Assembly: GCA_964457225.1 (NCBI GenBank)
Contig: CAYWEM010000001.1
Location: forward strand, 317,957-381,956
From: an uncultured Clostridia bacterium
Lineage (GTDB): Bacteria > Acidobacteriota > Aminicenantia > UBA2199
Reading direction: 5' to 3'
Length of the DNA: 64,000 nt
This document shows, one piece after another, positions 1,594-60,105 of the stretch. The translations under genes and the position numbers were made by a program. Under the pieces are notes generated by a model. It was not told where the DNA came from. It saw only the letters and a list, made by a program, of their open reading frames with translations, and ran no database searches. Numbering within the stretch: position 1 is the first letter of the stretch; each line of letters starts with the position of its first letter.

Positions 1594-1597
1594 CTGG

Positions 1598-1987: not shown

Positions 1988-1998
1988 CACTCCTCCTG

Positions 1999-12566: not shown

Positions 12567-14414
12567 TCAGAAAGTAATATCGAGACCGAAGTGAATTCTG
12601 CGGCCCGGGGCCCGGTAGCCGAATATTTCCTCGTAGCGTTGATCGAAAACGTTCAGAACTTTCAGATAAAAACTGGCCTGGCGATGCAGGCGCAGGCCGG
12701 CGGCGGCTGAAAACACGGCGAAACCAGCCGCATCGACCGTGATCCAGTTAAGCTCATCGTAGTCTTTCCTGCCGCCGACCAGTCTGGCGAAAGCATTGAG
12801 ATAGAACCTGCGGAAATCCAAATGCAACCGGGCCTGGATCAGGTGCCCTGGACGACGCAGCAGCTCTTCACCGCTGATTTCATTCCTGGCGGTCATTTTC
12901 TGCCAGGAGAGGGTGATGAAATGGGGACCCAGGTCAAGACGAGGCTGCAGCTGCCAGCCGCGCACCAGGTCGCGGCTGGAATTGGCCAGGCGGTAAGCCG
13001 CGTAATCGAAAACGATCAGTTCCCTGAATGAAGTATTGAAATAACCGGCGCGCAGGGAAAAGGCTCCCCTGGCCAGGCTGAATCCTGCTTCGAAATTCAG
13101 CGATTTCTCGGGCTGCAGATCCGGGTTGCCCCAGGGCGAAGCCAGTTCCACCGGCTTGGGAGAACGGTAACCAAAGCTGTTTACGGCGTAAAGACCAAGC
13201 AAAAAACCGTTTTCCAGGCGCCAGGTATGGGCGGCGGAAAAGCGCGGTGAAAGATGAAAACCGCTCCCCTGGTAGGAATCGGCGCGCAAGGCGGCCTGCA
13301 GGTTCCAGCCTTTATCCCGGAAAATCTGCTGCAGCCAGAAAGACCTACTGTTAAAGGCGTAAGCATCGAAACTCTGGTAGCCGGCCGAGTATTCATCAAT
13401 AACGGCCCGGTTCAGTTCCAGGCCGAGCACCGTCGGAGACAACTCGTTCAGCCAGTTACCCAGCAGCCTGGTTCTGAACTGGAAGTTGTCCGAGCGGGTA
13501 CGGTAATCTCCGCCCCAGGGATCGTCTTCATCCTCAAGTTCGTAGTCCCTGCGGTAATATCCGGCAGTCAGTTCAAGCGAAGTTTTCGGGCCGGCCTGAA
13601 AATGCAGGGGCAGGCCGAGTACCAGCAAACCGCTGTTGGCGCGCCTGTCGGGCGAAGGAAAACCGTAGTTCAGGGGGATGCCGAGATCCGCCCGGTTCAG
13701 GTAGAAAAAGGGTTCGGCCCGCCAAGCCCCGTGGCGCAGTTCAAAACCCAGCAGGGCGTTTTGCGAACTGAAATCTGAATTCTGCATTTCTCCGGCGGTC
13801 TGGAAGTGATCATAGGCCAGGGTCAGGCCGCCGATCCGGCCCAGGGGCAGTCCCCAGGAAAGCCGGCCGTTGTAGGAACCGGCTCCGCCGGCGCCCAGGG
13901 AAAGCCGGCCGCCTTGCACTGACCCGGTGACCAGGTTAACCGTGCCGCCCATGGCATCAGACCCGTACAAGCCGCTGTAAGGGCCCTCAACGATTTCAAC
14001 CTGCTGGAACACTCCCGGAGCCAGCCCGGCCAAATCCAGGGACAGGGCGGCAGGATCGTTGATGCGCACGCCGTTGATCATGTAGAGCACGTGCTTGGCC
14101 GAGGCCCCTCGCACGTACCCGGAGGACAACTGGCCGTATTCTCCACTGCCCAAAGTCAGCACGCCCGGGGCCAGGTTCAGCGCCTCGTTAAGGGTGAAAG
14201 CCCTGCTCCCGGCGATTTCCTCGGCAGTCAGCAGCAGCAGGGGTGTGACCGGAGCTTCAAACTTTTCCTGAATGCCGGAGGCGGTCACCACCACGTATTC
14301 CCGGACCGCACCGGTTTCCGTTTCCTTTTCCTTTTCCCGGGCCTCTTTTTCCGCTTCCAGGGGAACCAGGCCCAGGACGCACAACAGCACTAAGCAGAGT
14401 GCGATTTTTCTCAT
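12567..14414 (-). CDS. btuB: TonB-dependent cobalamin receptor, BtuB-like
   Basis: Signal peptide, TonB box VVVTAS, plug motifs (VRGASAKHVLYMING, VEIVEGPYSGLYGSDAMGG), C-terminal Phe, upstream B12 riboswitch. Confidence 0.85.
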   Translation of the reverse strand: MRKIALCLVLLCVLGLVPLEAEKEAREKEKETETGAVREYVVVTASGIQEKFEAPVTPLLLLTAEEIAGSRAFTLNEALNLAPGVLTLGSGEYGQLSSGYVRGASAKHVLYMINGVRINDPAALSLDLAGLAPGVFQQVEIVEGPYSGLYGSDAMGGTVNLVTGSVQGGRLSLGAGGAGSYNGRLSWGLPLGRIGGLTLAYDHFQTAGEMQNSDFSSQNALLGFELRHGAWRAEPFFYLNRADLGIPLNYGFPSPDRRANSGLLVLGLPLHFQAGPKTSLELTAGYYRRDYELEDEDDPWGGDYRTRSDNFQFRTRLLGNWLNELSPTVLGLELNRAVIDEYSAGYQSFDAYAFNSRSFWLQQIFRDKGWNLQAALRADSYQGSGFHLSPRFSAAHTWRLENGFLLGLYAVNSFGYRSPKPVELASPWGNPDLQPEKSLNFEAGFSLARGAFSLRAGYFNTSFRELIVFDYAAYRLANSSRDLVRGWQLQPRLDLGPHFITLSWQKMTARNEISGEELLRRPGHLIQARLHLDFRRFYLNAFARLVGGRKDYDELNWITVDAAGFAVFSAAAGLRLHRQASFYLKVLNVFDQRYEEIFGYRAPGRRIHFGLDITF

Positions 14415-14498
14415 GAAAAGCACCTCCATGTTTAAAATGGGAGGGATGTTTTTACGGTCCCGCCTCTCCCTCCGAAAGGAAGACCTTTGGGGTTTTCG

Positions 14499-34573: not shown

Positions 34574-34963
34574 ATGCTGAGCATCCTGTTTCTGCTGCTG
34601 ACGGTGACCGAGCATTACCTGCTCATGCAGCCGATTGAGGAAGTGCTCTGGCAGAGAAACCAAGCCAGCCTGGCAGCCATCTGCCAGGAGAAACTGACGG
34701 TGGAACTGGAAGAACCCTTCGCCATTTCCGGCCATTTACCCCGAAGATACTTCGCCTTCCTCTTCCATGAACGCTATGATTCTCTTAAACTGATCCGGAT
34801 TGAATGGGGTTCCCTGCACATTGAAGACGAAATTGCCCTGCAATCACTGAACGTCATGCTTGACCACCGGGTCTCCGGGCAGACCATTGCCTACAAGTTC
34901 ATTTTTTTCATGAAAAAGGATCAGGAATGGAAACTGTTCCATCTCCGCGGCATGCGCTTCTGA
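34574..34963 (+). CDS. small exported hypothetical protein, possibly NTF2-like fold
   Basis: Hydrophobic N-terminus, C-terminal FMKKDQEWKLFHL; ATG after AAGGA. Confidence 0.6.
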   Translation: MLSILFLLLTVTEHYLLMQPIEEVLWQRNQASLAAICQEKLTVELEEPFAISGHLPRRYFAFLFHERYDSLKLIRIEWGSLHIEDEIALQSLNVMLDHRVSGQTIAYKFIFFMKKDQEWKLFHLRGMRF

Positions 34964-37900
34964 AAACAACCGCGGCCGCGTTGCTGATCACCGCTTTGAT
35001 CGGTTTCTTCTACCAGACCAGCCTGCGCCGGCTGCAAACACAGGATTCCCTGCAGACCATTGACCGCCAACTGAAGCGGGTTGAGCGCAAAATGCAGTTC
35101 AAGGCGGAAAAACTTCGGGCCCGTGCAACCCGGCTTCATGAAGCCAGGCTGAAAAATCGACTGAACGAACGGCTTAATTCCCGCGAAGCCCTGATCGTTG
35201 AAGATTACGGAGTCATCTTCGAATACTGGGGCGAAGTTCTACTGGTCGATTTCCCGGATCTGCCCCTGAATCACTGGTCTTTGGCAAAAAAAGGACAGGA
35301 GGTCTTCTTCACTCTGCGCCTGGAAGAGCATCTCTACTACAGTTCGCATTTTTTCACCCTGGAAAACGATGCCCTGTTCAATGACCTGGAAAAACTGCCG
35401 GCAACCCTGGACTGGTACTTTTCGAGTTCGCCCCTGGAAAGAACTGCCGAGCCTCAGCTGGAAACCTCGGACAACCGCGTCATCTATCCCCACAACTTTG
35501 CCGCGGCCAATCACCAGCTGGCCTTAACCCTGGCTTTTGATCCGCAGGAGTTTTCCGCCTTCGTCCGTTTCCGTTCCGCCTCGGTTTTCGCCTGGCTGCT
35601 GGCCCTGCTGGCCGCAACAGCGCTGGTGCCGGCCGCAAGACGTTTTTTACAAATCCCCGGGCAAGCAACTGTTCCGGCGGCGGTCCTGCTCTCCATAGCC
35701 TTGCTCTTTCTGCTGCAGAGAACGGAAGGCAACCTGTCCCTGCCCGGAGGCCTGTTTCCCCTCAATTCGACCTTTGCCCTGCTGGCCGTTCTTTTCCCGC
35801 TGCTGGTCGTTTTAACCAGGTTCCTCCGTCAGGAAAAGCCGGCAAAAACCTGGATATCACTGCTCTCTTTCAACTTCCTGCTGATTGTTGCCCTGTTCTT
35901 TCAACAAATCCTTTTAAACAACCTGCTGTTTGCCAGTTCCACTTTTACCATCAACCCGGATTATCTCAGCCTGGTTCTCCTGCTCCTGTTGCTGTACTAC
36001 CTGCCCCTGAGATTGACCCTGCCCCGGCTGAAACCGGTAAAAGACTGGAAAACAGTCATTTTTTTCTTTTCGTTCCAGGCCATCGGCGCCTTGACATGTC
36101 ATTTCCTGGTGTGGGGCGATCCGGTCGCCTTCATGCTCATTTCTCTGCTGCTGCTGGCCGGATTTTTCCTGAAAAAGAAACTCGGCCTGATTTTGCTCTT
36201 ACTGGGGACACTGGCTTTTCTGCTTACCTGGCAGCTGCACCTGAACGCCGGCCGGGACCGTGACTCCTTTATCAGCGAAAACCTGCGCCGGGTGATTCTG
36301 AGCCAGGGACATTACGCCAAGCTCATCGCCAGGGAAATACTGTACGAAGTCAACACCAGGCAGGGGGAACTGCACACCCTGTTCGTCGGAGATCGGCAGC
36401 ATTCACTTACCGACATCTGGAAGCGCAGCCTGGCCGGCAGGCTGGGCATTCCTTCGGGCATATTCGTACTGAATCCCGCCGGCGAAGTGCTGTCCAGTTT
36501 CAGCAACCGCATCCCCTACGTGGCTTTTGAAAAAAGAGACCTGCTTCCATTCTGGCATATCGAGGAGATCAGCGCCGATCTTTACGGCCGCGAGTACACC
36601 ATGGCCGCGGCTTCGATCGACATCTTTCACCAGGCGGTTCACCTGGGTCGGATCATGATCCAGGTGCCGAATTCGCCGGAAGTCTACAGTGGGGAAGAAC
36701 GGGAATACTCGATTTTCTCAGCCAACCCGAAAGCCGCAGCCGCCCGGATCGGCTACCTGAAAATGGATGAATCAGGCCGCATTCGCGAAAACCCCTTCAA
36801 CCTGACCATAGACAGCCTGGACATGACCAAGCTGGCCGATGGCCAATGGTTTCGTTTTCAGCACCTGGGCAGCCCTCTGCGGGGGCTTTTCTGCCGCGGC
36901 AGTGAATCCATCCTGATCATCTTTCACCCCCTGGTTAACCCTTTCCAGCTTTTTTCCACCTTCATCCTGCTGCTGTTGTTCATTTCCATTCCCCTGCTGC
37001 TCGATCTCGGGGGCCTGCCCGTCGGAGTTCCCTGGCGGTTGTTCTATCATTCTTTCTCGGTAAAAGTCTTTTTAATTCTGATCCTGATTTCCCTGCTGAC
37101 CGCATCCACTTTTTCTCTGTTCACCCTGAATTACAACCGCTTGGAGCAGGAAAGAAGAAACACCCGCATCTCCCATGAACGGGGCATGATCGCCAGGAAC
37201 ATTGCCGGAAGTATCTTTGCCGGCGGTTATGAAATCCGGCCGGAAGACCTGTTTTTCCTGTCCCGTATTCTGGAAACCGATGTCCATCTCTATAAAAACG
37301 GAATTCTGCTTTTCAGTTCCAACCCCCTGACCGTTGAATCCGGCCGAATTCCACTCTACCTTCATTCGGATATTCTGCGCAAACTGAACCGGGAAAACCG
37401 GGAAATGGAAATATCAACCAACGGTGCTTCGCTTGACCTGTTTTTTGCCGTCAACGGGGATTTGATTTTCCAACTGGCCGGGATATCAGAAAACAGTGAA
37501 CGCCTGCCCCGGCTTGACCTGCTCGGAGATTTCCTTATTTCCCTGTTTTTCCTGCTGGGCCTGGTCGGTACTGCGGCGGCCCTGTTCTTCCGCAGGAAAA
37601 TCATCGCCCCGATAGATGAACTCAACAAAAGCATGCTGGCCGCGGAAAAAGGAGTGCTGGAACCGCTGGGGCATATGCCCAGGGAAGTGGAACTGCAGAG
37701 CCTTTACCAGGGTTTCAACGCCATGATCTCGGGCATCAGGGAACAGAAACGCAGCACGGCCGAAATATCACGCATGAAAACCCTGATAAACCTGAGTTCC
37801 CGGGTGGCCCACGAGATAAAGAATCCCCTGACGCCCATCCAGTTGTCGGCTGAACAGATCGAAAAAGCGGTCAGCGACGCCAAGCCCGGTTTCACGGAAA

Positions 37901-38448
37901 TGGTACGCAAGGCAGTGGCATTCATCGTTGAAGAAACCAACCACCTGCGCCGGGTGGCCCACGGTTTTCTCGACCTGGCCAAAATAGAAACACTCAAGAG
38001 TGAACCATACGACCTGCCCGAGCTCTGCCGGGAAGAAGTGGCCGGCCTGGCTCCGCTTTTCCCCCAGGTTGAATTCAAGCTCAGCACCCCTGAGGAACTG
38101 GTCCTGAAAGGTGACCGGGTCAAGGTCAAGCAGGCCCTGAAAAACCTGCTGGTTAATTCCCTGGAAGCCTTGGGTGACCGCCGGGGTGTGATAGAACTGG
38201 AAGTGCGGGAACAGGGCGAGCAAGTCGGCGTAAAGGTCAGCGACGACGGCCCGGGTTTTTCTTGTCCCGAGGAAGGCGAAGCCGGCGACCTTGATTTCAC
38301 TTCAGCCAAGGAAGGAGGCAGCGGCCTCGGTCTTTTCATCGTCAGGCGAATCTGCGAACTGCACGGCGGCAGGTTGCTGATCGAGGCCGGTCCCGGCCTG
38401 GGATGCAGCATCACCATGATCCTGAACAAAAATGTTACGCAAGCCTGA
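34927..38448 (+). CDS. large multi-pass NtrY-like sensor histidine kinase (HAMP-HisKA-HATPase)
   Basis: H-box VAHEIKNPLTPI, N-box NLLVNS, DDGPG, GSGLGL; many TM segments. Confidence 0.9.
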   Translation: METVPSPRHALLKTTAAALLITALIGFFYQTSLRRLQTQDSLQTIDRQLKRVERKMQFKAEKLRARATRLHEARLKNRLNERLNSREALIVEDYGVIFEYWGEVLLVDFPDLPLNHWSLAKKGQEVFFTLRLEEHLYYSSHFFTLENDALFNDLEKLPATLDWYFSSSPLERTAEPQLETSDNRVIYPHNFAAANHQLALTLAFDPQEFSAFVRFRSASVFAWLLALLAATALVPAARRFLQIPGQATVPAAVLLSIALLFLLQRTEGNLSLPGGLFPLNSTFALLAVLFPLLVVLTRFLRQEKPAKTWISLLSFNFLLIVALFFQQILLNNLLFASSTFTINPDYLSLVLLLLLLYYLPLRLTLPRLKPVKDWKTVIFFFSFQAIGALTCHFLVWGDPVAFMLISLLLLAGFFLKKKLGLILLLLGTLAFLLTWQLHLNAGRDRDSFISENLRRVILSQGHYAKLIAREILYEVNTRQGELHTLFVGDRQHSLTDIWKRSLAGRLGIPSGIFVLNPAGEVLSSFSNRIPYVAFEKRDLLPFWHIEEISADLYGREYTMAAASIDIFHQAVHLGRIMIQVPNSPEVYSGEEREYSIFSANPKAAAARIGYLKMDESGRIRENPFNLTIDSLDMTKLADGQWFRFQHLGSPLRGLFCRGSESILIIFHPLVNPFQLFSTFILLLLFISIPLLLDLGGLPVGVPWRLFYHSFSVKVFLILILISLLTASTFSLFTLNYNRLEQERRNTRISHERGMIARNIAGSIFAGGYEIRPEDLFFLSRILETDVHLYKNGILLFSSNPLTVESGRIPLYLHSDILRKLNRENREMEISTNGASLDLFFAVNGDLIFQLAGISENSERLPRLDLLGDFLISLFFLLGLVGTAAALFFRRKIIAPIDELNKSMLAAEKGVLEPLGHMPREVELQSLYQGFNAMISGIREQKRSTAEISRMKTLINLSSRVAHEIKNPLTPIQLSAEQIEKAVSDAKPGFTEMVRKAVAFIVEETNHLRRVAHGFLDLAKIETLKSEPYDLPELCREEVAGLAPLFPQVEFKLSTPEELVLKGDRVKVKQALKNLLVNSLEALGDRRGVIELEVREQGEQVGVKVSDDGPGFSCPEEGEAGDLDFTSAKEGGSGLGLFIVRRICELHGGRLLIEAGPGLGCSITMILNKNVTQA

Positions 38449-40970: not shown

Positions 40971-42257
40971 ATGACACCGGGAAAAACAGGCGGAACCGAA
41001 AGCTTTGAAATAGTGGAAATGCTCGGAGCCGGGGGCTTCGCCCAGACCTGGCTGGCCCGGGTGCTGGACCGTGACCTGATCAGGGAATGGGGCACCGACC
41101 TGGTGGCCCTTAAAATCCCCCTGGACAAGGAAAAGGCCCGCGTCCTGCAGAAAGAACTGGTCCTGACCGGCAGTCTGCACCTGCAGCTGCGCAAGCTTGA
41201 ATCCAGGCACCTGGTCAGGTATTACGGTTTCGAGGTATTCCAGGGCAAAGCGGTGATGGTCATGGAGTACATCAGCGGCGGCTGCCTGAGAAACCTGCTG
41301 GGGAAAATCGGCCGGCAGAAAGCAATGCGGCCCGAACAGGTGAAACCGATCATCCAGGGGATTGTCTCCGGACTCGAGGCAATCCACAGGAAAAGGATCA
41401 TTCACCGTGACATCAAGCCGGAAAACATACTGATGGACGGCCTGGTGCCGAAAATCACCGATCTTGGGGTCGGCCGGATGCTGCAGCCGGACGAAATGGC
41501 CTTGACCGCGGTGGGCACGCTTTTCTACCTGCCGCCCGAATTGGCCCTGGGCCACCCGGCCACCTACAACGTCGATTTCTGGCCCCTGGGCGTGATGCTG
41601 TTCGAAATGCTCTTCGGCTGTTTTCCCTTCGGAATAAGTCCCGAAATGCCGCCGGGCCGCATGCTGAGCATCATAGTCGATGAAAAAATCAATCTGGTCC
41701 TGCCGCCCCTGGAAGGCCTGCCCGATTGTTTCCGCACCCTTTTACCACGCCTGCTGGAAAGGAATCCCCAGAAAAGAATCAAGCGGGCCGGGGAAATCCT
41801 GGATTTACTGGACGACAAGGCTGGATCAGTTTCAGCCCCGGCAGATCGGCATGTTGACGTGGAAAACGAAATCGAGGAACTGACCAGGCTGATGAAGAAC
41901 CAGGCTGATCCCGAGAGCGTAAAAAAAAGACTGGCCGACCTGATCGAAAGTCACCCGGATCAGGCCCGGATTTTTTTACTGGCCGGGCAGTTCTTTACCA
42001 GGATCAACCACCCGGAAAGGGCCCTGGAGTTGTTTGCCCGGGCGGCCGAGTTATCGCCCGGTTCAGCACTGCCTTTATGGGAATGCGCCGTGGCTTACGA
42101 CCAACTTGGGAAACCGGCCCAGGGCCTGGACTGCCTGAACAAAGCACTGGCCATCGGACTCGATCCGGGCCGGGAAAAAGTCGCCCGCTCCCTGCAAAAA
42201 AAGCTCCAGGCAAAAGTAAAGAATAAACCCGAAACTGAACCGGCACAAGGAGGATGA
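40971..42257 (+). CDS. Hanks-type Ser/Thr kinase with C-terminal TPRs, no TM segment
   Basis: LGAGGFA, VALK, HRDIKPEN, DLG, GTLFYLPPE, DFWPLG; TPR-like C-terminus. Confidence 0.93.
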   Translation: MTPGKTGGTESFEIVEMLGAGGFAQTWLARVLDRDLIREWGTDLVALKIPLDKEKARVLQKELVLTGSLHLQLRKLESRHLVRYYGFEVFQGKAVMVMEYISGGCLRNLLGKIGRQKAMRPEQVKPIIQGIVSGLEAIHRKRIIHRDIKPENILMDGLVPKITDLGVGRMLQPDEMALTAVGTLFYLPPELALGHPATYNVDFWPLGVMLFEMLFGCFPFGISPEMPPGRMLSIIVDEKINLVLPPLEGLPDCFRTLLPRLLERNPQKRIKRAGEILDLLDDKAGSVSAPADRHVDVENEIEELTRLMKNQADPESVKKRLADLIESHPDQARIFLLAGQFFTRINHPERALELFARAAELSPGSALPLWECAVAYDQLGKPAQGLDCLNKALAIGLDPGREKVARSLQKKLQAKVKNKPETEPAQGG

Positions 42258-42259
42258 AA

Positions 42260-44677
42260 ATGGGACGAATTATCGGTATCGACCTGGGAACGACCAACTC
42301 CGTGATGGCCACCGTCGGCGAAGGCGGTCCCAGAATCATTCAGAACCGGGAAAACGAGGACAAGACTCTCTCGATCGTTTCTTTTCACAAGGGTGAACTG
42401 CTGGTGGGCACGCCGGCCTTCCAGCGCTGGCTTATCAACCCCAGGGAAACGGTCGTTTCCATAAAACGCCTGATCGGACGGGGATTCAACGACCCTGAAG
42501 TACAGCGTTTCAAGGCCGGGGACAAGGGTAAGGAATGGATCAAGTATGAAATCGTTCAGCCTCCGGACGGTACCGCGGACAGCCTGCGGGTCGTACTGGG
42601 CGGCAATCACTATTCCCCGGTTGAAATTTCGGCCCGGATCCTGGAAAAAATGAAAAAAGACGCCGAATACGTGCTGGGTGAAGAAGTCAGTCACGCGGTT
42701 ATAACCGTCCCCGCCTATTTCAGTGACAAACAGCGCAACGCCACCCGTGAAGCCGGATTGAAAGCCGGTCTCAAGGTCATGAAGATTCTCGATGAACCGA
42801 CCGCGGCCGCGGTGGCCTACGGGATAGAAGATCATCAGGGTGAACCGAAAACCATCCTGGTCTTTGATCTCGGGGGCGGCACCCTGGATATTTCCGTGTT
42901 GATGATGGCTTCCGGAGCCTTTTCCCCGCTGAACCTGGAAGGCGACATGTGGCTGGGCGGGGATGATTTCGATGAAATCATCGTCAGCCATGTTCTGGCC
43001 GAGATAAAAAGTAAGTACGGACTTGAACCCAGGTCGGACACCCGCTTCATGGCCGCCTTGAAAAAAGAAGCACAGCGGGCCAAGGAAACTCTCAGCTCGG
43101 CGGCCGCGACTGACGTCATTCTGGCCGGCCAGCTCCGGGATGATTCCGGAGAACCGCTGGACATCGAGGTGGAAATCACCCGTACCCGTTTCGATGAAAT
43201 GATCCGCCCCCTTATCGACAAGATGCGCAAAATGATTGAAAAAGCCGTCATCAATGCCAATTTTGAATTCAACGACATCGACCACGTGCTGATGGCCGGC
43301 AATTCCACCGCGGTACCGGCCATTCAGGTCCTGATGGAACAGTTGTTCGGCAAGGAAAAAATCCTGCGCGCCGTCCACCCCAAGCACAGTGTGGCTATCG
43401 GGGCGGCCGTCACCGCGGCCCTGTTGCAGGCGGTCAACTGTCCGACCTGCGGTCACAACAACCCTCTCGATGCGGGCAACTGCGAAAAATGCGCCACCGA
43501 GCTGGTAATAAACCGCTCCAGGAAATGCCCGGCCTGCGGCCGTGAAAACCCTGAATCAGCCGAGAAATGCCGCGACTGCAACACTCCTTTTTTTGAACTC
43601 GAGGGACTCAAGGGCGGAATCGCGCCCTTTCACTACGGAGTGGCCACCGCTGACGACAAGTTCCACATCTTCATCAGCAAGGGCGATCCTTTCGAAACCC
43701 CGGAAGAAAAAAGAATCGTTCAGACTTTTTACACTCATTATCCCAACCAGAGAGTCATCTGCGTTCCGGTTTACGGGGGTGATCACCTGGAAAAGGCCAG
43801 TTTGAACGTCAAGCAGGGCGAGGTTTTTTCAGTACTGCCCCGGGGTTTCCCGGAAAAAACCCCGGTCAAGGTCAAGCTCTGGCTGGATCATGACGGTTCC
43901 TTCGTGGTCGACAACTTCCTGGACGAGGCTCATGACCTGGAAGACCTGATGCTGAGAGGCGAAGAAGATCAGAAAGTAGTCGAATTGCTGACCGCGGCCG
44001 AAGAGAAGTTCCATGCCAGGAAGGATCAACTGGCCCCGAACGTGCTGGCCGAGCTGGAAAGCAAGCGCGACCAGGTCCTGGACAAACTGGATCGCAAGGA
44101 ATTCAGCGCGGCCGGCGCGGCGGCGGCCCAATTACTGCAGGCTGTAGAAAACGCCGGAGCTCCGGACCTGATGAAGAAAGCTGAAAACATTATCTCAAAC
44201 ATAAACTATTACGTTCAGCGTTATTCCTGGTTAATGCAGGCCGATGGCCTGTCCTTGTCCTCCAAGGTTGAGGAACTGAAATCAGCAGTTTCTGGCGGAA
44301 ACCGGCAATTAATTGAAAACAAAATCAACGAGCTTGATACCGCCTTTAATTTGTGCCAGGAAAAAAACCAGCTTCTAAAAGTCCTGGTCAGCATTAACCA
44401 GGCGATTGTAAGCATCGTCCACCCGGTCGACGCCCTGCAGGCCGGAGAATTACTGCGTGAATTCGAACAGATCGAAGCCGGCCTTAAAAACAACGACCTT
44501 TCAGCCCAGTCCCGTTTCGCCGCCTTTATGTTAAAACTGAATGCCGCCCTGCAATCCTGCCTGCAAAAAGGCGGCGGAAAAACCAGCCCCTGCCGATCCT
44601 GCGGCCAGGCCAACCCGATCGGCGCCCGGAACTGCAAAGCCTGCGGTGCGGATCTCTGGGGACTGGTCAGCCTGTAA
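42260..44677 (+). CDS. non-canonical Hsp70-family protein with three zinc ribbons
   Basis: GIDLGTTNS, SIKRLIGR, TVPAYF, DEPTAAA, DLGGGTLD, LGGDDFD; six CxxC motifs. ATG 42260 is 6 nt after AAGGAGG (alternative 42254). Confidence 0.93.
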   Translation: MGRIIGIDLGTTNSVMATVGEGGPRIIQNRENEDKTLSIVSFHKGELLVGTPAFQRWLINPRETVVSIKRLIGRGFNDPEVQRFKAGDKGKEWIKYEIVQPPDGTADSLRVVLGGNHYSPVEISARILEKMKKDAEYVLGEEVSHAVITVPAYFSDKQRNATREAGLKAGLKVMKILDEPTAAAVAYGIEDHQGEPKTILVFDLGGGTLDISVLMMASGAFSPLNLEGDMWLGGDDFDEIIVSHVLAEIKSKYGLEPRSDTRFMAALKKEAQRAKETLSSAAATDVILAGQLRDDSGEPLDIEVEITRTRFDEMIRPLIDKMRKMIEKAVINANFEFNDIDHVLMAGNSTAVPAIQVLMEQLFGKEKILRAVHPKHSVAIGAAVTAALLQAVNCPTCGHNNPLDAGNCEKCATELVINRSRKCPACGRENPESAEKCRDCNTPFFELEGLKGGIAPFHYGVATADDKFHIFISKGDPFETPEEKRIVQTFYTHYPNQRVICVPVYGGDHLEKASLNVKQGEVFSVLPRGFPEKTPVKVKLWLDHDGSFVVDNFLDEAHDLEDLMLRGEEDQKVVELLTAAEEKFHARKDQLAPNVLAELESKRDQVLDKLDRKEFSAAGAAAAQLLQAVENAGAPDLMKKAENIISNINYYVQRYSWLMQADGLSLSSKVEELKSAVSGGNRQLIENKINELDTAFNLCQEKNQLLKVLVSINQAIVSIVHPVDALQAGELLREFEQIEAGLKNNDLSAQSRFAAFMLKLNAALQSCLQKGGGKTSPCRSCGQANPIGARNCKACGADLWGLVSL

Positions 44678-44689
44678 GGTTTCCCGAGC

Positions 44690-47017
44690 ATGAAAGATCC
44701 GCTGCAGCTCTCTGAAAACGCTTACGAGGTACTGCTGATCGATCCGGACGGATTGGTTGACAACCAGCTGGTGGCCCGGCAGTTCAAACTGAAAGAGGTT
44801 TTCACCAGGAAAAACGCCCGGGAAGCCCGGAATACCCTGGTCAATCCTTTGAGCCGGGCCCTGGTCGACGTTTTCATTTTCGAAAACCGTTTCCTGGCTA
44901 AGCTTTCAGAAAAAATCTGCCGGGAGCCACAACTGCTGGTCAGCCGGCGCGGAGATATCCGCCGGGGCCTGGAAAACAAGCTGACCGAGATGTTTCCCTA
45001 TTATCCCTGTATCTACACCCTGGCGGTCCTCAGTTACTGGGAGGCGGTTTATCTCGAAGAAAAACGCTGGGCCGGGCTGGAACAAGCGGATTTCCCCCAA
45101 CCAGCCGGCCTGGGACAATTAATTGAACTTGAAAAAGCCTGGACGGACACCGTTCTTTACTGGGCCGCCCTGATCAACAGCAAAGATTTCTGGCTGGAAT
45201 GGCTGGAACTGAAAAAGGAAAACGGACTGCTGCTGGATCAAGGACATGACATTCCCAAGCTGCAGCAAGCGATCAGTGATCACCTGGGCAAACAGATAAA
45301 CAGCTACTCGGAAAGATACCGATTGGCCGGCAGGCAGGCGGAAGCACTTTTTTTCAGCGATTCCTCTGCAAAGCTGAGTAATGAAATCCGCAGCGGCTCT
45401 GTCCTGGCCGCCCTTGAGATCAGGGAGAGCTTCGGTTCCCGCTCCTACCTTTTTGCCTGCGGCCCCGGACTGCTGCAGAAATACAGTCAAATCGAGAAGG
45501 TAAAAAACGCTATCCGGGCGGCCAGGCTAAAGCAACCGCAAAACCAGGATCTGCAGGAGCTGGAAAAAGCACTTTCCCCCCTGGCCGGGATTTACGACCT
45601 GCTGAAAGAGGGCAAGCTGGACCGGGCCAAAGAGGAATTGAACAAAATAGATCCGGCCGCGGTCGATGATTCCGAATTGAATTCATGCCGGATGAACCTG
45701 GCTTTTAAACAGGGCAGCCAGGCTTTCAGCGTGGGCCGGGAGGAAGATGGTTTTCAATTCTGGAAAGAATGCTTATATCACGGTCAGCTCAATGACGAGC
45801 AAAAGGCCGGGATTTCCAGGCTGGTCCTGGAAAAGGTAAAGTCTCTCCAGCTGCATGAACCGCAAAAAGCGATAAGCATGCTGGAAAGAGTCCTGAACAT
45901 CTTCCCGGACCGGGAAATGTCCGGCAACCTTTCCCTGTTACTGATGCAACGCGGCATCGGGGCTTATAACAATGGTATCCAGGAAATAGACGGACTTTTT
46001 CAGCATATTCATCAATCAGGTTCTCTCAGCTGGCCTGATGACGGTCCATTCAAGGCGAGTAACTTCCTGCAGGCCTCGGAAAACTCCATCAACGATCTGA
46101 CAAAAGCGCTTTCCCTGGACCCCGGCAACCAGAAAATAATGCAGGAACTCCATAGCATAAAATCCGGCTTGCAGAACATCGGCAAAACCCTGATAAAACT
46201 ATCCATACAAAACCAGGATTATCAGATTGCCGACAACACTGTCATGGTTATAATCCGCCAGGGACTTAGTGACCCGGAATTTGAACAACTATGCCATGAA
46301 GTCGAATACAACCGCAAGTTTATGCCCTGGATGCCCAAACCTTTCAGCCCGGGAGCACCAGTCAAGCAGGTAAAACAAAAAAAAATCTCTTCGGAAAAGC
46401 TGCCCGACCTGATCGACCGGGAAAAGTGCTTTTTCTGCCTGGGAGAAAAGAACGACGGCCGGGAAAACGCAAGGCTGGAACTGGATTTTCATAAAACCAT
46501 CAGTAATGATGAAAACCTGCTGCATTGGCAGTCCCAAAAACTGTTCGTTTCCCGCTGCCCGAAATGCGCCGAAGTACACCAGGCCAAGAAAGAGAAAAAA
46601 GATCCTTTGGCCGAGGCCAAGGGCGAAGCCGCCGGCTGCGGCTGCCTGGCCTTCATCTTCAACGGCATCATCCTTTACTTCCTGGTTTACCTGTTCGTTG
46701 ACTTTCACAGGCTCTTCGGCATGCATCCGGCTTTTATCGGAGTCACCGGCTTGATCTCTCTCCTGACCGCCATGGGTATAATTTTCATCGTGAAAAGAAT
46801 ACCGCGGAACGGCGACCCGGCCCGGAAAAAAGCCATGGCCGACTTCATGAAACTCGGAAATCACCGGATGCTGAGCTTTGCCGAAGTGACCCGCCGTTAC
46901 GAATGGTACCTGAACACCACCGCGGATGAACAATCCTGGAAAAAACACGCCCTGGCAGCTGATATCGTCAGAAAAGGTTTTTCTACCGGTCTCAGGCCGC
47001 CCGAGGCGGGATTGTAA
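44690..47017 (+). CDS. membrane-anchored protein: J-like N-terminus without HPD, helical/TPR-like repeats, CxxC-CxxC finger, two TM helices
   Basis: NAYEVLLI...AREARNTLVNPLSRALVD; CFFC...CPKC; two hydrophobic segments at about 46640-46795. Confidence 0.75.
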   Translation: MKDPLQLSENAYEVLLIDPDGLVDNQLVARQFKLKEVFTRKNAREARNTLVNPLSRALVDVFIFENRFLAKLSEKICREPQLLVSRRGDIRRGLENKLTEMFPYYPCIYTLAVLSYWEAVYLEEKRWAGLEQADFPQPAGLGQLIELEKAWTDTVLYWAALINSKDFWLEWLELKKENGLLLDQGHDIPKLQQAISDHLGKQINSYSERYRLAGRQAEALFFSDSSAKLSNEIRSGSVLAALEIRESFGSRSYLFACGPGLLQKYSQIEKVKNAIRAARLKQPQNQDLQELEKALSPLAGIYDLLKEGKLDRAKEELNKIDPAAVDDSELNSCRMNLAFKQGSQAFSVGREEDGFQFWKECLYHGQLNDEQKAGISRLVLEKVKSLQLHEPQKAISMLERVLNIFPDREMSGNLSLLLMQRGIGAYNNGIQEIDGLFQHIHQSGSLSWPDDGPFKASNFLQASENSINDLTKALSLDPGNQKIMQELHSIKSGLQNIGKTLIKLSIQNQDYQIADNTVMVIIRQGLSDPEFEQLCHEVEYNRKFMPWMPKPFSPGAPVKQVKQKKISSEKLPDLIDREKCFFCLGEKNDGRENARLELDFHKTISNDENLLHWQSQKLFVSRCPKCAEVHQAKKEKKDPLAEAKGEAAGCGCLAFIFNGIILYFLVYLFVDFHRLFGMHPAFIGVTGLISLLTAMGIIFIVKRIPRNGDPARKKAMADFMKLGNHRMLSFAEVTRRYEWYLNTTADEQSWKKHALAADIVRKGFSTGLRPPEAGL

Positions 47018-47050: not shown

Positions 47051-48028
47051 ATGAACAAGGCTGCGCAAACAATGGTTTTCTTTTTCATCATGGCTCTGCT
47101 GCAAGTCGGCAACCTGGTTTATTTCGCCGAAAGGGAACAGGCTGAAAAAGCTGTTGAATACCGGGAACTGGCCCGGGAATCACTGGATTTGCTCAGCAAG
47201 AAAGGAGTTGCTGCGGAATTGATCGTGGAAAGAATTAAGACCCTGGCTGCTGAAGCAGGCAGGATCGAAAACTCTTTTTTCATAAAAACACTGCACCCGA
47301 CTTACAAAGACACGATATTTCAGAGCCTGCGTCATCTTTACATCGATTTCTTTACGTATTACGGGGAGGAAGCCTGGCAGCAGATCAGGTTCATCAACAT
47401 GATCCTGGAAAGTGAAATCAAAGTCGATTACCTGCTGAAACCTCCGGATCTCAGCCGCGAACCTGTAAGAAAACCGGCCGGAAAGACCGGGGAAAAACCC
47501 GCGGAACCTGATCCGGCACTTGACTCTCGCCTGAAGAGCAGTGTTGAGAGAATTAATGAAATCAACTCGATTCTGGCGGGAATGAAGGGGGAACTCAGTA
47601 TTGAAGAAATCCCGATAACCAGGCAATTGCTCGATGAAAAGGCTCAACACGAGAGGTTTGTCAGGAATGAAATAATGCGCATGCAGACGGAAGATTTAGA
47701 ACTGCCGGGGTTTCTCCAGGATTTCAGCGAAAACAAAACGGAACAGCCAAAAGTCCCGGCCCGGCCCCTGCCCGATGCCCCGGTACAGGATTCGGAAGAA
47801 CCGGCCCGGAACCGGGAAATCAAGCGCGGAGAGCTGGGTTCATACATCGGCAAAACCATCCTGCTGACCCTGACCAACGGACGTAACATGAAGGTGGTTC
47901 TGCAGGATGTTAACCCGGGATCAATCAAGGTGGCCGAGATGAGGCCCGAAGGGGAAATGAATTACACGATCCCCCATGCCAGGATCAGGCTGATCGAACG
48001 GGAGCAGAACTATTTCATCAAAGAATAA
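47051..48028 (+). CDS. exported or membrane-anchored hypothetical protein, C-terminal Sm/SH3-like beta domain
   Basis: Hydrophobic N-terminus, helical middle with Pro-rich linkers, C-terminus YIGKTILLTLTNGRNMKVVL...IPHARIRLIE. Confidence 0.65.
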   Translation: MNKAAQTMVFFFIMALLQVGNLVYFAEREQAEKAVEYRELARESLDLLSKKGVAAELIVERIKTLAAEAGRIENSFFIKTLHPTYKDTIFQSLRHLYIDFFTYYGEEAWQQIRFINMILESEIKVDYLLKPPDLSREPVRKPAGKTGEKPAEPDPALDSRLKSSVERINEINSILAGMKGELSIEEIPITRQLLDEKAQHERFVRNEIMRMQTEDLELPGFLQDFSENKTEQPKVPARPLPDAPVQDSEEPARNREIKRGELGSYIGKTILLTLTNGRNMKVVLQDVNPGSIKVAEMRPEGEMNYTIPHARIRLIEREQNYFIKE

Positions 48029-55473: not shown

Positions 55474-56028
55474 CTATGTAGAGGCATCCTCGGCTTTGGC
55501 CTGCTTGAGATAGCGCTCCAGGATCAGGGGCACCTGGTCGGAGGTAACGTCGCCGTGGACCTCCTCCCCCACCATGACCACAGGCGCCAGGCCGCAGGTT
55601 CCGACGCAGCGGGAAGCCTCAAGAGTAAAGAGACCGTCCTTGCTGGTTTCTCCGAACCCGATTCCTAACTCCTCCTCGAAACGGGTGACCACCCCCTCGG
55701 CCCCCTTGACGTAGCAGGCGGTTCCAATGCAGACCGAGATGCGAAAACGCCCCACCGGCTGCAAGCGGAAATAGTGGTAGAAGGACGCAACCCCAGAGAC
55801 CTTGGCGGCGGGTACCTGGAGAAGCTGCGCCACGGCATCGAGCTGGGGAACTCCCAGGTACCCGAAGTGGCCCTGCACCCGGTGGAGCACCTCAATGAGG
55901 TTGCTCTCGGAGCGGGGTCGGGTGCGGCAATCCTCGATGAAGGCGACGATATCCGGGGTGAGGACCGCAGCGGCCGCGGCGCTCACGGCCGGCCAGTTAT
56001 CATTGTTTCTGCAGGAGTGATGGCTCAT
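55474..56028 (-). CDS. hydC: [FeFe]-hydrogenase NuoE-like 2Fe-2S subunit (HydC/HndA)
   Basis: VCIGTACYVKGA and CVGTCGLAPVV; last gene of the hyd operon. Confidence 0.88.
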   Translation of the reverse strand: MSHHSCRNNDNWPAVSAAAAAVLTPDIVAFIEDCRTRPRSESNLIEVLHRVQGHFGYLGVPQLDAVAQLLQVPAAKVSGVASFYHYFRLQPVGRFRISVCIGTACYVKGAEGVVTRFEEELGIGFGETSKDGLFTLEASRCVGTCGLAPVVMVGEEVHGDVTSDQVPLILERYLKQAKAEDAST

Positions 56029-57785
56029 CGGACACCTCGCGGCAATTTGGGAGTGTAGCTTGTATGCAGCAGGTCATGGGCCTTGTCGCCGCCAGGTTCA
56101 CCCAGAAAACGCTGGAACAGCTCCTTTACGGCGGGGTTTTCGTGGGAGCGGCGCAGTTTCTTGGTAGCGTCGATCTGGTAGAGGGCCTGGGCGCGCTGGC
56201 GCAGCACCTGATGATCCAGAGCGTGTTCCACCCCGGGTGGATAGGGCTGGCCGCCGCCGCCGATGCAGCCGCCGGGACAGGCCATGACCTCTATGACGTG
56301 GAACTCCTCCTCGCCCCGGGAGACCTTGTCCAGCAGCTTGCGGGCGTGCCGCAAACTATTGGCCACCCCGACCCGCAGCAGGCGGCCTGCCAGGGCCACA
56401 TCCACGGTCTTGATCCCACCCACGGCGCGAACCTCCGGGAACTCGAGCCGTTCGGGCTCCTTGCCCGTGAGCAGGGCGGCCGCTGTGCGCAGGGTGGCCT
56501 CCATGACACCGCCGGTAGTGCCGAAGATGTCTCCGGCGCCGCTGGCCAGGCCCAGGGGTGCGTCGTACTCGCCGTCCGGGAGGGAGACCAGGTCTATGCC
56601 CCAGCACTTGATCATCCAGGCCAGTTCACGGGTGGTGAGCACAGCGTCGGTGGTGGGGGTGCCGTCCGGCAACCGGTGCTCGGGCCGGGCGGCCTCGAAT
56701 TTCTTGGCGGTGCAGGGCATGACGGCAACCACGAATATCTTCTCCACCGGCACTTTGACCTGCTGCGCCCAGTAGGTCTTGATCAGGGTGGACATCATGC
56801 TCATGGGAGACTTGCAGGTGGAGGCATTGGGGATCAGCTCGGGGTAGAACTTCTCCAGAAAGGATATCCAACCGGGCGAGCAGGAGGTGATGATGGGCAG
56901 CGGACCGCCCTCCTCCAGCCGCCTGATGAGTTCATGGGCCTCCTCGACAATGGTCAGGTCGGCGCCCAGGTCAGTATCAAAGACCTGGTCGAACCCCAGA
57001 CGCCTCAGAGCAGTGATCATGCGGCCGGTGACCGGGGTACCCGGCGGCAAGCCGAAGGCCTCGCCCAACGTCGCCCGGATGGCTGGCGCCGTCTGCACCA
57101 ACACCACCTTGTCAGGGTCGGCCAGGGCGGCCCAGACCGGCTCGGTGGCGGGTTTCTCCAGAAAGGCAGCAGTGGGGCAGACGTTGACGCACTGCCCGCA
57201 CTGGATGCAGACCGAATCGTCCATTTTGGCGCCGTGGGCCGGCGTGACAACAGTTGTGAAACCCCTCCGGTGCTGGGAAAGATTATAGACACCCTGGACC
57301 TCGTCGCAAACCCGGACGCAGCGCCCGCAAAGAATGCACTTGTCCGGCTCACGCAGCACCGCCACCGACGAGTCGTCGATGGGAAAGTGCTTGCGTTTGC
57401 CTTCAAAGAGTCGTTCCCGCACGCCGTGGCGCCAGGCCACCTTCTGCAGTTCGCAGTTGCCGTCGCGTTCACAGGTCTGGCAGTCCATGGGGTGGTTGTC
57501 CAGGATCAGCTCAATGATATCACGCCTTGCCTGGCGTATGACCGGTGAGTTGGTGTTCACCCTCATCCCGTCCCATACCTTCTGCGAACAGGCCGCCATG
57601 TAATAATCCATGCCCTCCACTTCCACGATGCACACCCGGCAGGCACCGGCGATGGAGAGGTCGGGGTGGTAACACAACCGCGGAATGTTGATATTGAGTT
57701 CCTCGGCAGCAGCCATGATGGTGGTGCCGGCCGGCACCTCCAGTGGTGTGTCGTCGATCCAGATTGATACTTTCTTCTCGCTCAT
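56025..57785 (-). CDS. hydA: [FeFe]-hydrogenase catalytic subunit, group A
   Basis: H-cluster motifs TSCSPGW, MPCTAKKFE, EVMACPGGCIGGGGQP; accessory 2Fe-2S, His-ligated and 2x[4Fe-4S] sites. Confidence 0.95.
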   Translation of the reverse strand: MSEKKVSIWIDDTPLEVPAGTTIMAAAEELNINIPRLCYHPDLSIAGACRVCIVEVEGMDYYMAACSQKVWDGMRVNTNSPVIRQARRDIIELILDNHPMDCQTCERDGNCELQKVAWRHGVRERLFEGKRKHFPIDDSSVAVLREPDKCILCGRCVRVCDEVQGVYNLSQHRRGFTTVVTPAHGAKMDDSVCIQCGQCVNVCPTAAFLEKPATEPVWAALADPDKVVLVQTAPAIRATLGEAFGLPPGTPVTGRMITALRRLGFDQVFDTDLGADLTIVEEAHELIRRLEEGGPLPIITSCSPGWISFLEKFYPELIPNASTCKSPMSMMSTLIKTYWAQQVKVPVEKIFVVAVMPCTAKKFEAARPEHRLPDGTPTTDAVLTTRELAWMIKCWGIDLVSLPDGEYDAPLGLASGAGDIFGTTGGVMEATLRTAAALLTGKEPERLEFPEVRAVGGIKTVDVALAGRLLRVGVANSLRHARKLLDKVSRGEEEFHVIEVMACPGGCIGGGGQPYPPGVEHALDHQVLRQRAQALYQIDATKKLRRSHENPAVKELFQRFLGEPGGDKAHDLLHTSYTPKLPRGVR

Positions 57786-57795
57786 GGCCGCCCCC

Positions 57796-59964
57796 TCATG
57801 TTCTGAGCACCGCGTCGAAGCGGCAGACATCGAAGCACTGCCCGCACTTGATGCAGCGCGACTGATCGATGACGTGTACCTGCTTGCGCTCTCCCGCTAT
57901 ACAGGCCACCGGACACTTGCGGGCGCACACGGTACAGCCCACGCAGGCATCGGAGGCGATCTCGTATCGAATCAGAGCAACACAGCGGGTAGCCGGGCAG
58001 CGGTGTTCAGCCACGTGGACTTCGTACTCCTCCCGGAAGTATTTCATGGTTGAAAGCACGGGATTGGGCGCCGCCCGACCCAGGCCGCAAAGTGAGGACC
58101 GCTTCACCAGCATGGCCAGCCGGGCGAGACGTTCAACGTCCTCGGGCCGGGCCTTGCCGGAGGTGATCCGGTCCAGGATCTCCATCATGCGGGTATTGCC
58201 CTCGCGGCAGGGGGTACACTTGCCGCAGGACTCATCCTGGGAGAAGGTCATGAAAAACTTGGCAATGTCCACCATGCAGTCGGAGTCATCCAGAACGATC
58301 ATGCCGCCCGAACCCATGATGGAGCCCAGTTCACCCAGGGTGTCGTAATCCACGGGGGTGTCCAGGTACCGCGCCGGGATACACCCGCCCGCCGGGCCGC
58401 CGGTCTGGATGGCCTTGAGCCCCCTCTCACCCGCCACGCCGCCGCCGATGTCATCGACTATTTCCCGCAGCGGCGTCCCCATGGGCACCTCCACCAGGCC
58501 GGTATGGCGCACCTTGCCCGCCAAGGCAAAGACCTTGGTGCCGCCTGAGGACGCGGTGCCCAGGCGGGCGAACCAAAGGCTGCCGAAATTGATGATGGGT
58601 GACACATTGGCCAGGGTCTCCACGTTGTTTATGCAGGTGGGAGCTCCCCACAATCCGACATCTGTCGGGTAGGGCGGGCGGGGACGGGGTTTACCGCGCT
58701 CACCCTCGATGGAGCGGATCAGGGCGGTTTCCTCGCCACAGACAAAGGCGCCGGCGCCAAGCCGGATTTCCAGGTCGAAAGTAAACCCGGAGCCCAGTAT
58801 ATTGGCTCCAAGTATTCCCCACTCCCGGCACTTCCGTATGGCATTCTCCAGCCGCCGGATAGCCAGGGGATATTCAGCCCTGACATAGAAGAAACCCTTG
58901 ACGGCGCCGATAGCATAACCGCCGATGATCATCCCCTCAATGATGTTGAAGGGGTCGGACTCCAGCATGGAGCGGTCCATGAAAGCGCCCGGGTCTCCCT
59001 CATCGGCATTGCAAATGAGGAAGCGTTCGTCGCAAGGGGTGGTCCGGGCCTGTTCCCATTTCAATCCCGTGGAGTAGCCGCCACCGCCGCGGCCACGCAG
59101 CCTGGCATTTTTGATCTGCTGAATCACCCATTCCGGGTCACCCTCGGTCAATACCCCGGCCAGTGCCTTGAAGCCGTCAAACAGGATGTACTCGGCAATG
59201 TTTTCGGGGTCGATGACGCCATTGTTGCGCATGGCGACCCGGGTCTGCTTGGAGAAGAAAGGCACATCGGCGTAGAGGGCGAAATAGTCCTGGCCCACCA
59301 GGCGTTCCTTTACCTCCAGATCCGGAGCCTGTTGCTGGCGGAGGATGCGGGCTCGGATGATGCGTTCGATGTCCTCATCACTGTCAAAGCGGAACAGGGC
59401 CCCCCCGGGCCGGATCAGTACATGGCCGTACTTCCCGGCTTCCTCGGAGCCGCAGGAGCCGAAGCATGAGGCTGTGGCGATTTCGATCCCATCAGTGGCG
59501 CCCAGGGCAACGAGCTGCTCCCGGAACCTCCCCACTTTATCCGAACCGCAGCGGTTTCCCGAGCAGAAGACGAGCTGAAACTGGGCCGGCGCTGCGCCGC
59601 TGCCATCAAGGATCTGCTCCACCACCGGCTCCCCCGCCAGGACATGCTGAGTGAAGATGCGGTGCACGCTCTCGCGGTTGACACTCTCGTATTTCACCGG
59701 CATGTGCCCCGGGTGGATGACGCCGACAATTGGCTCACGGCTGCACCTACCCGTACAACCAACCTGGTGCAACTCGATGTCGGTTCGCCCCGAGGCGACA
59801 ATGTGTTTCCTGATTTCGCCGGCGACTTCCAAAGCCCCGGCCGCGTGTTCACAGGTAGCAGACCCTACCTGGATGCGTATCCTGTCGCCTTCACCTGTTT
59901 GCGCCAGGGTCTGGCGCGCCAGGGTCAGCAATTCTCCGAAGCTATCCTGTACTCCTGGGTTCAT
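57796..59964 (-). CDS. hydB: [FeFe]-hydrogenase NADH/FMN subunit (HydB/HndC) with an extra N-terminal HndB/HydD-like domain
   Basis: LRGRGGGG, CNADEGDPGAFMDR, GAGAFVCGEET, ESCGKCTPCREG, C-terminal 2x[4Fe-4S]; ATG after GAGGAG. Confidence 0.92.
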   Translation of the reverse strand: MNPGVQDSFGELLTLARQTLAQTGEGDRIRIQVGSATCEHAAGALEVAGEIRKHIVASGRTDIELHQVGCTGRCSREPIVGVIHPGHMPVKYESVNRESVHRIFTQHVLAGEPVVEQILDGSGAAPAQFQLVFCSGNRCGSDKVGRFREQLVALGATDGIEIATASCFGSCGSEEAGKYGHVLIRPGGALFRFDSDEDIERIIRARILRQQQAPDLEVKERLVGQDYFALYADVPFFSKQTRVAMRNNGVIDPENIAEYILFDGFKALAGVLTEGDPEWVIQQIKNARLRGRGGGGYSTGLKWEQARTTPCDERFLICNADEGDPGAFMDRSMLESDPFNIIEGMIIGGYAIGAVKGFFYVRAEYPLAIRRLENAIRKCREWGILGANILGSGFTFDLEIRLGAGAFVCGEETALIRSIEGERGKPRPRPPYPTDVGLWGAPTCINNVETLANVSPIINFGSLWFARLGTASSGGTKVFALAGKVRHTGLVEVPMGTPLREIVDDIGGGVAGERGLKAIQTGGPAGGCIPARYLDTPVDYDTLGELGSIMGSGGMIVLDDSDCMVDIAKFFMTFSQDESCGKCTPCREGNTRMMEILDRITSGKARPEDVERLARLAMLVKRSSLCGLGRAAPNPVLSTMKYFREEYEVHVAEHRCPATRCVALIRYEIASDACVGCTVCARKCPVACIAGERKQVHVIDQSRCIKCGQCFDVCRFDAVLRT

Positions 59965-60105
59965 CAGGTTTATCTCCTCGCCATCATTGTCATCAATCGA
60001 GCAACGCAGGTGTTTGGTGTGCAAGAAACATTAAAGACGTCAGGGTTAAAGGCAATTGAAGGTATCTGCTTTTCTGACAGGAAATTCAATATCAGCCATT
60101 TTATG

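Follow-up and report, generated by a model that had tools for sequence, protein, structure and literature searches.

A bacterial family of J-domain-like proteins without the HPD loop is encoded next to an atypical Hsp70

Introduction

The His-Pro-Asp (HPD) motif in the loop joining helices II and III counts as the single feature that a J-domain cannot do without, and stimulation of Hsp70 requires it in all known J-domains (review PMC13254874). J-domain proteins (JDPs) are assigned to type IV when they contain a clearly recognisable J-domain with a non-conservatively altered HPD (PMC13254874); such pseudo-JDPs, e.g. Pam16/Tim16, DNAJB13 and ICP22 of herpes simplex virus, have a J fold that can still be recognised, but no functional HPD. 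A 2026 review leaves open whether HPD-less pseudo-JDPs are accidental or selected, and whether Hsp70 is recruited by them but not activated (PMC13254874). Here, we analysed a 64-kb stretch of contig CAYWEM010000001.1, hereafter called the window, and in it an open reading frame (ORF) of 775 amino acids (aa) at 44690..47017 on the forward strand, for which a preliminary description had noted a J-domain-like N-terminus. Our analysis assigns this gene to a large bacterial family of HPD-less J-like proteins. We propose, with a probability of roughly 0.6, that its product and the atypical Hsp70 encoded directly upstream form a dedicated pair, in which the J-like protein serves as membrane-anchored, HPD-independent adaptor or co-chaperone.

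The J-like protein falls under the type IV, or J-like, definition, with the motif deleted rather than substituted. Pam16, DNAJB13 and ICP22 carry substitutions of HPD (DKE, HPL), whereas the whole loop is deleted in the J-like family. In contrast to these proteins, the family is also bacterial and spread over several phyla, its domain is fused into a larger fold and the docking residues of its partner Hsp70 are changed. With Pam16 it shares a predicted membrane association and the presence of an Hsp70 and a GrpE-type exchange factor alongside. Pam16, however, works through its true J partner Pam18, while loci of the J-like family have no such partner.

The closest functional precedent is HscC of Escherichia coli with DjlB and DjlC, likewise a private, co-encoded pair of a diverged Hsp70 and membrane-anchored J partners with an altered HPD (HPE; PMC13254874). 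DjlB and DjlC, however, keep the loop with the conservative HPE, HscC lacks zinc ribbons and has kept its normal linker, and the HscC system comes without the kinase, GrpE or Clp genes found in operons of the J-like family. GAP1-N2 GTPase conflict modules (PMC7159879) also resemble these operons in encoding an extra Hsp70, its own GrpE, a DnaJ- or TPR-fused partner and sometimes a kinase, but they centre on GTPases and FNIII proteins and contain a normal DnaJ domain, whereas the J-like loci lack a GTPase. In a literature search for the combination of Hsp70, zinc ribbon and J-like protein we found no description, this GTPase-linked HSP70-GrpE-DnaJ theme being the nearest (PMC7159879). Since the J-like family is large, conserved and distributed over several phyla, its loop is cleanly deleted and the adjoining cognate Hsp70 is changed at the residues that read HPD, the question of selection and recruitment becomes testable with two recombinant proteins.

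Results and discussion

The 775-aa protein begins with MKDPLQLSENAYEVLLI, and the interval originally flagged (44717..44880) corresponds to its residues 10–64. Within this interval, the segments NAYEVLLI, LVARQFK and AREARNTLVNPLSRALVD had been read as parallels of J-domain helix I, helix II and helices III/IV. Taken alone, the window sequence does not match Pfam DnaJ even at E ≤ 10, so the similarity as first noted was not significant by itself, and scans of the whole protein against Pfam, NCBIfam and PADLOC returned neither a J-domain nor a named family. Two homologues (27–29% identity) obtained by a word-index search match PF00226 at positions 2–24 with E-values of about 1e-4, and their helix I reads ‘YEVLGI’ and ‘YEILGI’, respectively. 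PF00226 is matched at E ≤ 0.01 by 76 of 99 family N-termini. As scores in the family fall below the Pfam gathering cut-off, surveys relying on this threshold would miss it.

A profile built from a 99-sequence alignment of residues 1–72 and run against all PDB sequences matched solved J-domains with E-values of 4e-8 to 1e-5 across helices I–IV, and nearly all of the first 57 among the matches listed were J-domain proteins. With the same alignment, hhalign against the J-domains of Ydj1 and DNAJA1 gave a probability of 97.7% and an E-value of 1.6e-12, pairing the three segments with exactly those helices to which they had been assigned. AlphaFold2 predicted four helices for residues 1–72 with a mean confidence (pLDDT) of 82.9; a Foldseek search of this model against the PDB returned J-domains in 32 of 34 matches, with probabilities up to 0.96 and TM-scores of 0.5–0.6. 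The model is consistent with a four-helix J fold with helix II/III hairpin, and profile alignment and Foldseek, the checks initially suggested for a J fold, both returned J-domains. One could still argue that short amphipathic helices have produced the resemblance by chance, as the window sequence alone has no Pfam match and the Foldseek E-values of the 72-residue model are weak (0.3–7). The profile search against the PDB, the hhalign result and the PF00226 matches of family members refute such a coincidence, to which we assign practically no likelihood. Together with the Foldseek matches of the AlphaFold2 model, they argue for homology: on the sequence profiles, the N-terminal segment is a shortened J-domain homologue.

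We delimit this J-like subdomain to aa 10–64 (44717..44881, forward strand, as are all features of the gene described below) on the basis of profile, hhalign, AlphaFold2 and Foldseek, with helix I at 11–14, helix II at 25–35, helix III at 40–51 and helix IV at 53–61. It agrees with canonical J-domains (PF00226; DnaJ, Ydj1, DNAJA1) in four-helix topology, N-terminal location, an Hsp70 encoded beside the gene and GrpE in relatives, and shares the signatures ‘YE(I/V)LG(V/I)’ in helix I, ‘A(F/Y)(K/R)’ in helix II, ‘A..L’ in helix III and ‘P..R...D’ in helix IV. It differs from them in that about 9–13 residues including HPD are missing, the position equivalent to R22 is usually acidic (D/E in 64% of members), an invariant MKDPLQ precedes helix I, and, by prediction, the J-like part packs rigidly onto a 240-residue domain instead of sitting on a flexible linker.

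The segment carrying HPD is missing, as the preliminary description had stated. Every alignment (HMMER, hhalign) shows a single gap of 9–13 residues over KYHPDKNPSEEA, which falls exactly on ‘KYHPDKNPxxx’ of J-domains. At the site of the loss, the window protein has the helix II–III connection ‘KEVFTRKN’ (aa 35–42; 44792..44815), for which the family consensus is ‘(K/R)(R/G)xNVxKL’, and the HPD of functional JDPs (classes A–C) is not present in it. No HPD was found in this connection in any of 146 family members, which points to an old, family-defining deletion and not to a lesion of the window gene. The deletion first noticed is hence real, but it is not particular to this gene, as the trait defines a family of at least 464 representatives. 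Within the N-terminal 72 residues, D3, L15, Y12, A46, L50, R56 and Y64 are invariant or near-invariant; judged by such conservation, the HPD-less trait is shared across the family and constrained. The window copy is a member of a subgroup that has degenerated further: the helix I glycine G16 is replaced by leucine and A31 by glutamine; two residues are inserted before its helix II and its loop is three residues shorter than that of its relatives.

The size of the family was estimated from residues 1–300 of the window protein, for which an exhaustive profile search yielded 464 representatives at E ≤ 1e-3, 159 of them reaching E ≤ 1e-30. Related loci were contributed by the word-index search with the J-like protein (two relatives), the same type of search with the C-terminal half of the Hsp70 (one relative), a profile search of genome contigs (two loci) and a degenerate DNA pattern for MKDPLQ....PYE.L (14 metagenome loci). 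Family members appear in databases under the names ‘TPR repeat protein’ or ‘hypothetical protein’. The named carriers are metagenome-assembled genomes of Planctomycetota, Methylococcales and Christensenellales; other loci come from metagenomes.

The near-invariant peptide M-K-D-P-L-Q (44690..44707) has no counterpart in canonical J-domains. Among 99 members, D3 and K/R2 are conserved in 100%, and P4 and L5 in 95%. AlphaFold2 places this peptide confidently only when residues 66–305 are present: its pLDDT is 95 in a 305-aa model, compared to 61 in the 72-residue model. The longer model, built on a 35-sequence alignment, predicts that residues 1–305 form one compact all-alpha unit (pLDDT 94.7, pTM 0.92), in which a conserved all-alpha domain (aa 65–300; 44882..45589) packs against the J-like subdomain. 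A Foldseek search of the 305-residue module against the PDB found no structural counterpart (TM-score ≤ 0.27). According to this prediction, the J-like part is one rigid unit with the following 240 residues and not a free J-domain.

This prediction is central to the main rival of the dedicated-pair reading, according to which the J helices are a structural relic and only a building block of the 300-residue module, with the Hsp70 recruited by TPR or zinc ribbons or merely sharing a pathway. The rigid unit fits such a relic, and so does the observation that the conserved residues of the J-like part (Y12, L15, A31, A46, L50, R56, D60) belong mostly to the fold-determining core; TPR domains are generally known to bind Hsp70 tails in other systems. 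On the other hand, few parts of the protein are as well conserved as the J-like segment, in a family whose members otherwise share 25–33% identity. The changes in the partner Hsp70, described below, bear on the same choice.

Following the rigid module, TPR-like helical repeats occupy aa ~301–510 (45590..46219), with Pfam TPR scores below threshold in the window protein and significant scores in relatives. A PADLOC match to Csx1/Csm6 (CARF+HEPN; E 1e-4) lies at 45485..46213 (aa 266–508) within this helical and TPR region; we rejected this identity as weak and probably spurious, reflecting helical-repeat noise. A putative zinc ribbon is suggested by the sequence pattern of CxxC pairs at C580 and C623 (46427..46567), and 47 of 135 relatives contain at least two CxxC after aa 300. 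A Kyte-Doolittle scan revealed two hydrophobic segments at aa 647–673 and 680–705 (46628..46804), a putative membrane-anchor hairpin. Since 110 of 135 full-length relatives contain at least one hydrophobic segment, the family appears to be mostly membrane-anchored. At least six relatives carry a C-terminal YidC/Oxa1 (60KD_IMP) domain, others LysM, DUF4190 or SHD1; examples of these fusions are found among L008 (1551-5036), L011 (9001-13161), P0029, P0031, P0058 and P0070.

The gene directly upstream (42254..44677, forward strand) encodes an atypical Hsp70 of 807 aa (Pfam HSP70, PF00012, E 5e-120; DZR, E 1.7e-9). Counting loci with sufficient upstream sequence, an Hsp70 that shares this special C-terminal half directly precedes the J-like gene not only in the window but also in about 12 independent loci (L001, L005, L006, L008, L009, L011/L013, L012, L014, L016, L017/L018, L020, L021, L025). 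In L024, a protein with a divergent Hsp70 nucleotide-binding domain (NBD) takes the place of the zinc-ribbon Hsp70; this 596-aa protein (706-2496, reverse strand) combines a divergent Hsp70/actin-like NBD with TPR repeats and a C-terminal SecC-type CPCGSGRKYKRCCG motif. The usual operon order in the relatives is kinase-TPR, GrpE, Hsp70, J-like protein, TPR protein and Clp-type AAA+ ATPase, with GrpE in six independent loci, the Clp ATPase in seven operons and ClpP once. A gene for a canonical HPD J-protein was found neither in 25 related loci nor in the 64-kb window, so the Hsp70/GrpE set is without another J partner nearby.

The missing J partner is also decisive for a role resembling that of Pam16/Tim16, in which the HPD-less domain would pair with a true J-protein and modulate its access to Hsp70. 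Pam16 is indeed an HPD-less J-like protein that acts at a membrane with Hsp70 and a GrpE homologue (PMC13254874). The true J partner required for such a role was not found in the 25 loci or the window, although a partner encoded elsewhere in the genome is possible, and the J-like part is predicted to pack against its own helical domain. We have rejected this role as very improbable.

The Hsp70 consists of an NBD (aa 1–393), a double zinc ribbon (394–446), a region resembling the beta subdomain of the substrate-binding domain (SBD-beta; ~456–590), a helical region and a C-terminal zinc ribbon (779–801; 44588..44656, forward strand). Its NBD aligns with DnaK residues 1–382 (E 1e-84) and keeps the catalytic motifs DLGGGT and EPTAAA, the phosphate-binding motifs and the equivalent of E171. 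With the phosphate-binding motifs and E171 equivalent retained, the protein looks ATPase-competent. The SBD-beta region matches the Hsc70 SBD weakly (E 0.08) and keeps the ‘LDHDG’ (D479/D481) loop.

The neighbouring Hsp70 has neither the conserved hydrophobic linker (VLLLD) nor the J-docking residues R167, N170 and Q378. A loss of the linker had been claimed from the start. The VLLLD sequence is gone, but the preliminary claim holds only in part: the position between NBD and SBD is taken by a double zinc ribbon of ~55 residues (43433..43591, forward strand; Pfam DZR at aa 396–443), which comes after GAAVTAALLQAV and is followed by the SBD-beta-like domain. Because of this insertion, ‘linker loss’ is better called a replacement.

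D35 of HPD is the partner of R167 in DnaK, and the mutation R167H suppresses DnaJ D35N; R167, N170 and Q378 form one network around the HPD aspartate D35 (PMC5519331; bioRxiv 10.1101/2020.03.25.008359). D208 coevolves and is in contact with K26 of DnaJ helix II, and the acidic hairpin binds J helix II (PMC5519331). Alignment with DnaK places the motif K-I-L-D-E of the window Hsp70 (aa 177–181; 42782..42796, forward strand) on R167-I-I-N170-E171, so that the HPD-docking arginine is replaced by lysine and the asparagine by aspartate. Across 12 partner Hsp70 sequences (10 distinct), ‘LRIINEPTAAA’ is changed to ‘(M/I)K(I/V)(I/L/Q)DEPTAAA’ in 11, the twelfth having methionine for lysine; the N170 position is aspartate in all 12, and the Q378 position is threonine or alanine in most. 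The acidic hairpin of lobe IIA (E206/D208/E217 in DnaK) is also lost in the partner Hsp70s, reading ‘LLMMA.G.F.PL’; in the window protein it is replaced by VLMMASGAFSPLNLE (42896..42940, forward strand).

With the HPD loop lost and the Hsp70 docking residues changed, both sides of the canonical interface appear to have diverged together. As both sides are altered, the pair is, going by the substitutions, probably insulated from housekeeping DnaK/DnaJ. The earlier notion of a co-evolved Hsp70/J-like pair is supported in part, namely by the near-constant adjacency, the loss of HPD and the changes in R167, N170, Q378 and the acidic hairpin. A structural relic would also fit a canonical interface that is degraded on both sides. 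However, the Hsp70 changes are specific and conserved (K, D) and do not resemble random decay, and the operon supplies GrpE yet no alternative J-protein. We regard the relic as unlikely, although it deserves serious attention.

A dedicated pair of J-like protein and upstream Hsp70 is best supported by three observations taken together: a conserved J-like module, its constant adjacency to a GrpE-equipped Hsp70 without other J-protein, and the remodelling of both interface faces. Several points weigh against it. The window locus has neither GrpE nor Clp, and in L015 the gene immediately before the J-like one encodes a Clp ATPase, not an Hsp70. The J-like part of the window copy is of the most degenerate type (G16L, A31Q, a loop shortened by a further three residues). 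AlphaFold2 predicts the J-like part to be integral to the rigid 305-residue module (pTM 0.92), inside which its canonical Hsp70-binding face may be buried. Moreover, as known J-domains need HPD, the J-like domain may only tether Hsp70, or do nothing towards it.

In our best explanation, a diverged J-domain has lost the tip of its helix II/III hairpin, about 11–13 residues including His-Pro-Asp, and this loop-less form is ancestral to a large bacterial family that lacks an annotation. What is left of the J-domain is predicted to be built into a rigid helical module of 300 residues; TPR repeats and a putative membrane anchor come after it, or in some relatives a C-terminal YidC/Oxa1 domain instead. 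If the dedicated pair is assumed, the protein might use its remodelled J-like surface to dock the upstream Hsp70 and to keep it on the cytoplasmic side of the membrane, where the ATPase would either be triggered by an HPD-independent contact or the Hsp70 would merely be positioned. A private GrpE would reset the cycle in most relatives, clients would be handed to the Clp-type AAA+ ATPase, sometimes with ClpP, and the Ser/Thr kinase would regulate the machine.

Such a locus would suggest that kinase, GrpE, Hsp70, J-like protein and Clp make up a so far uncharacterised proteostasis operon acting at the membrane, and the J-like family would offer a naturally orthogonal pair of Hsp70 and co-chaperone. 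More speculatively, the family may represent a natural and widespread HPD-independent J/Hsp70 partnership, a membrane adaptor with rebuilt interface and possibly KDPLQ in place of HPD, which together with GrpE, Clp and kinase would form a PAM-like membrane motor for membrane or secreted proteins. We consider this extension possible but rather doubtful; if true, it would be a bacterial membrane motor functionally analogous to the mitochondrial PAM import motor.

Gene cluster and neighbourhood in the window

In the window, the J-like gene is the third of a tightly packed cluster of four genes, all on the forward strand. The first (40971..42257) encodes a Ser/Thr protein kinase (Pfam Pkinase, E 1e-41) that carries TPR repeats, likewise matched in Pfam, at its C-terminus; an orthologue of this kinase lies upstream in seven independent related loci. 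Its stop codon overlaps the start codon of the Hsp70 gene by 4 nucleotides (ATGA, 42254..42257), 12 nucleotides separate the Hsp70 stop from the start of the J-like gene, and 33 nucleotides follow before the last ORF. The overlap and the short gaps suggest translational coupling of all four genes. The last gene (47051..48028) encodes a 325-aa protein with a predicted N-terminal membrane anchor that matches no family and has no significant similarity to genes downstream in relatives. Its C-terminus bears a faint resemblance (E 0.25) to an ORF of 323 aa that follows the Clp ATPase gene in L009. Relatives of GrpE, Clp ATPase and ClpP were found nowhere in the window (tblastn, E ≤ 1e-3), and the cluster, with its four genes, represents a reduced form of the relatives' operon.

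The kinase resembles the PADLOC defence kinases mad6 and PD-T4-6, which raises the possibility that Hsp70, kinase and J-like/TPR protein serve as sensor or effector scaffold of an anti-phage or conflict system and not in proteostasis. HSP70-GrpE-DnaJ/TPR modules do occur in GTPase-centred conflict systems (PMC7159879), and the C-terminal domains of the J-like family are variable. However, the Hsp70 has no PADLOC match, that of the J-like protein is the single weak one to Csx1/Csm6 described above, the loci contain no GTPase, nuclease or other effector, the window neighbours are housekeeping genes and the kinase matches reflect the generic kinase fold. A defence function is in our view improbable.

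Besides the housekeeping genes neighbouring the cluster, the window encodes a [FeFe]-hydrogenase with NuoF-like subunit (56025..60024, reverse strand), a TonB-dependent receptor (12567..14429, reverse strand) and a large membrane sensor histidine kinase (34927..38448, forward strand). The neighbourhood indicates an anaerobic bacterium of Gram-negative type; the DNA itself originates from an activated-sludge metagenome.

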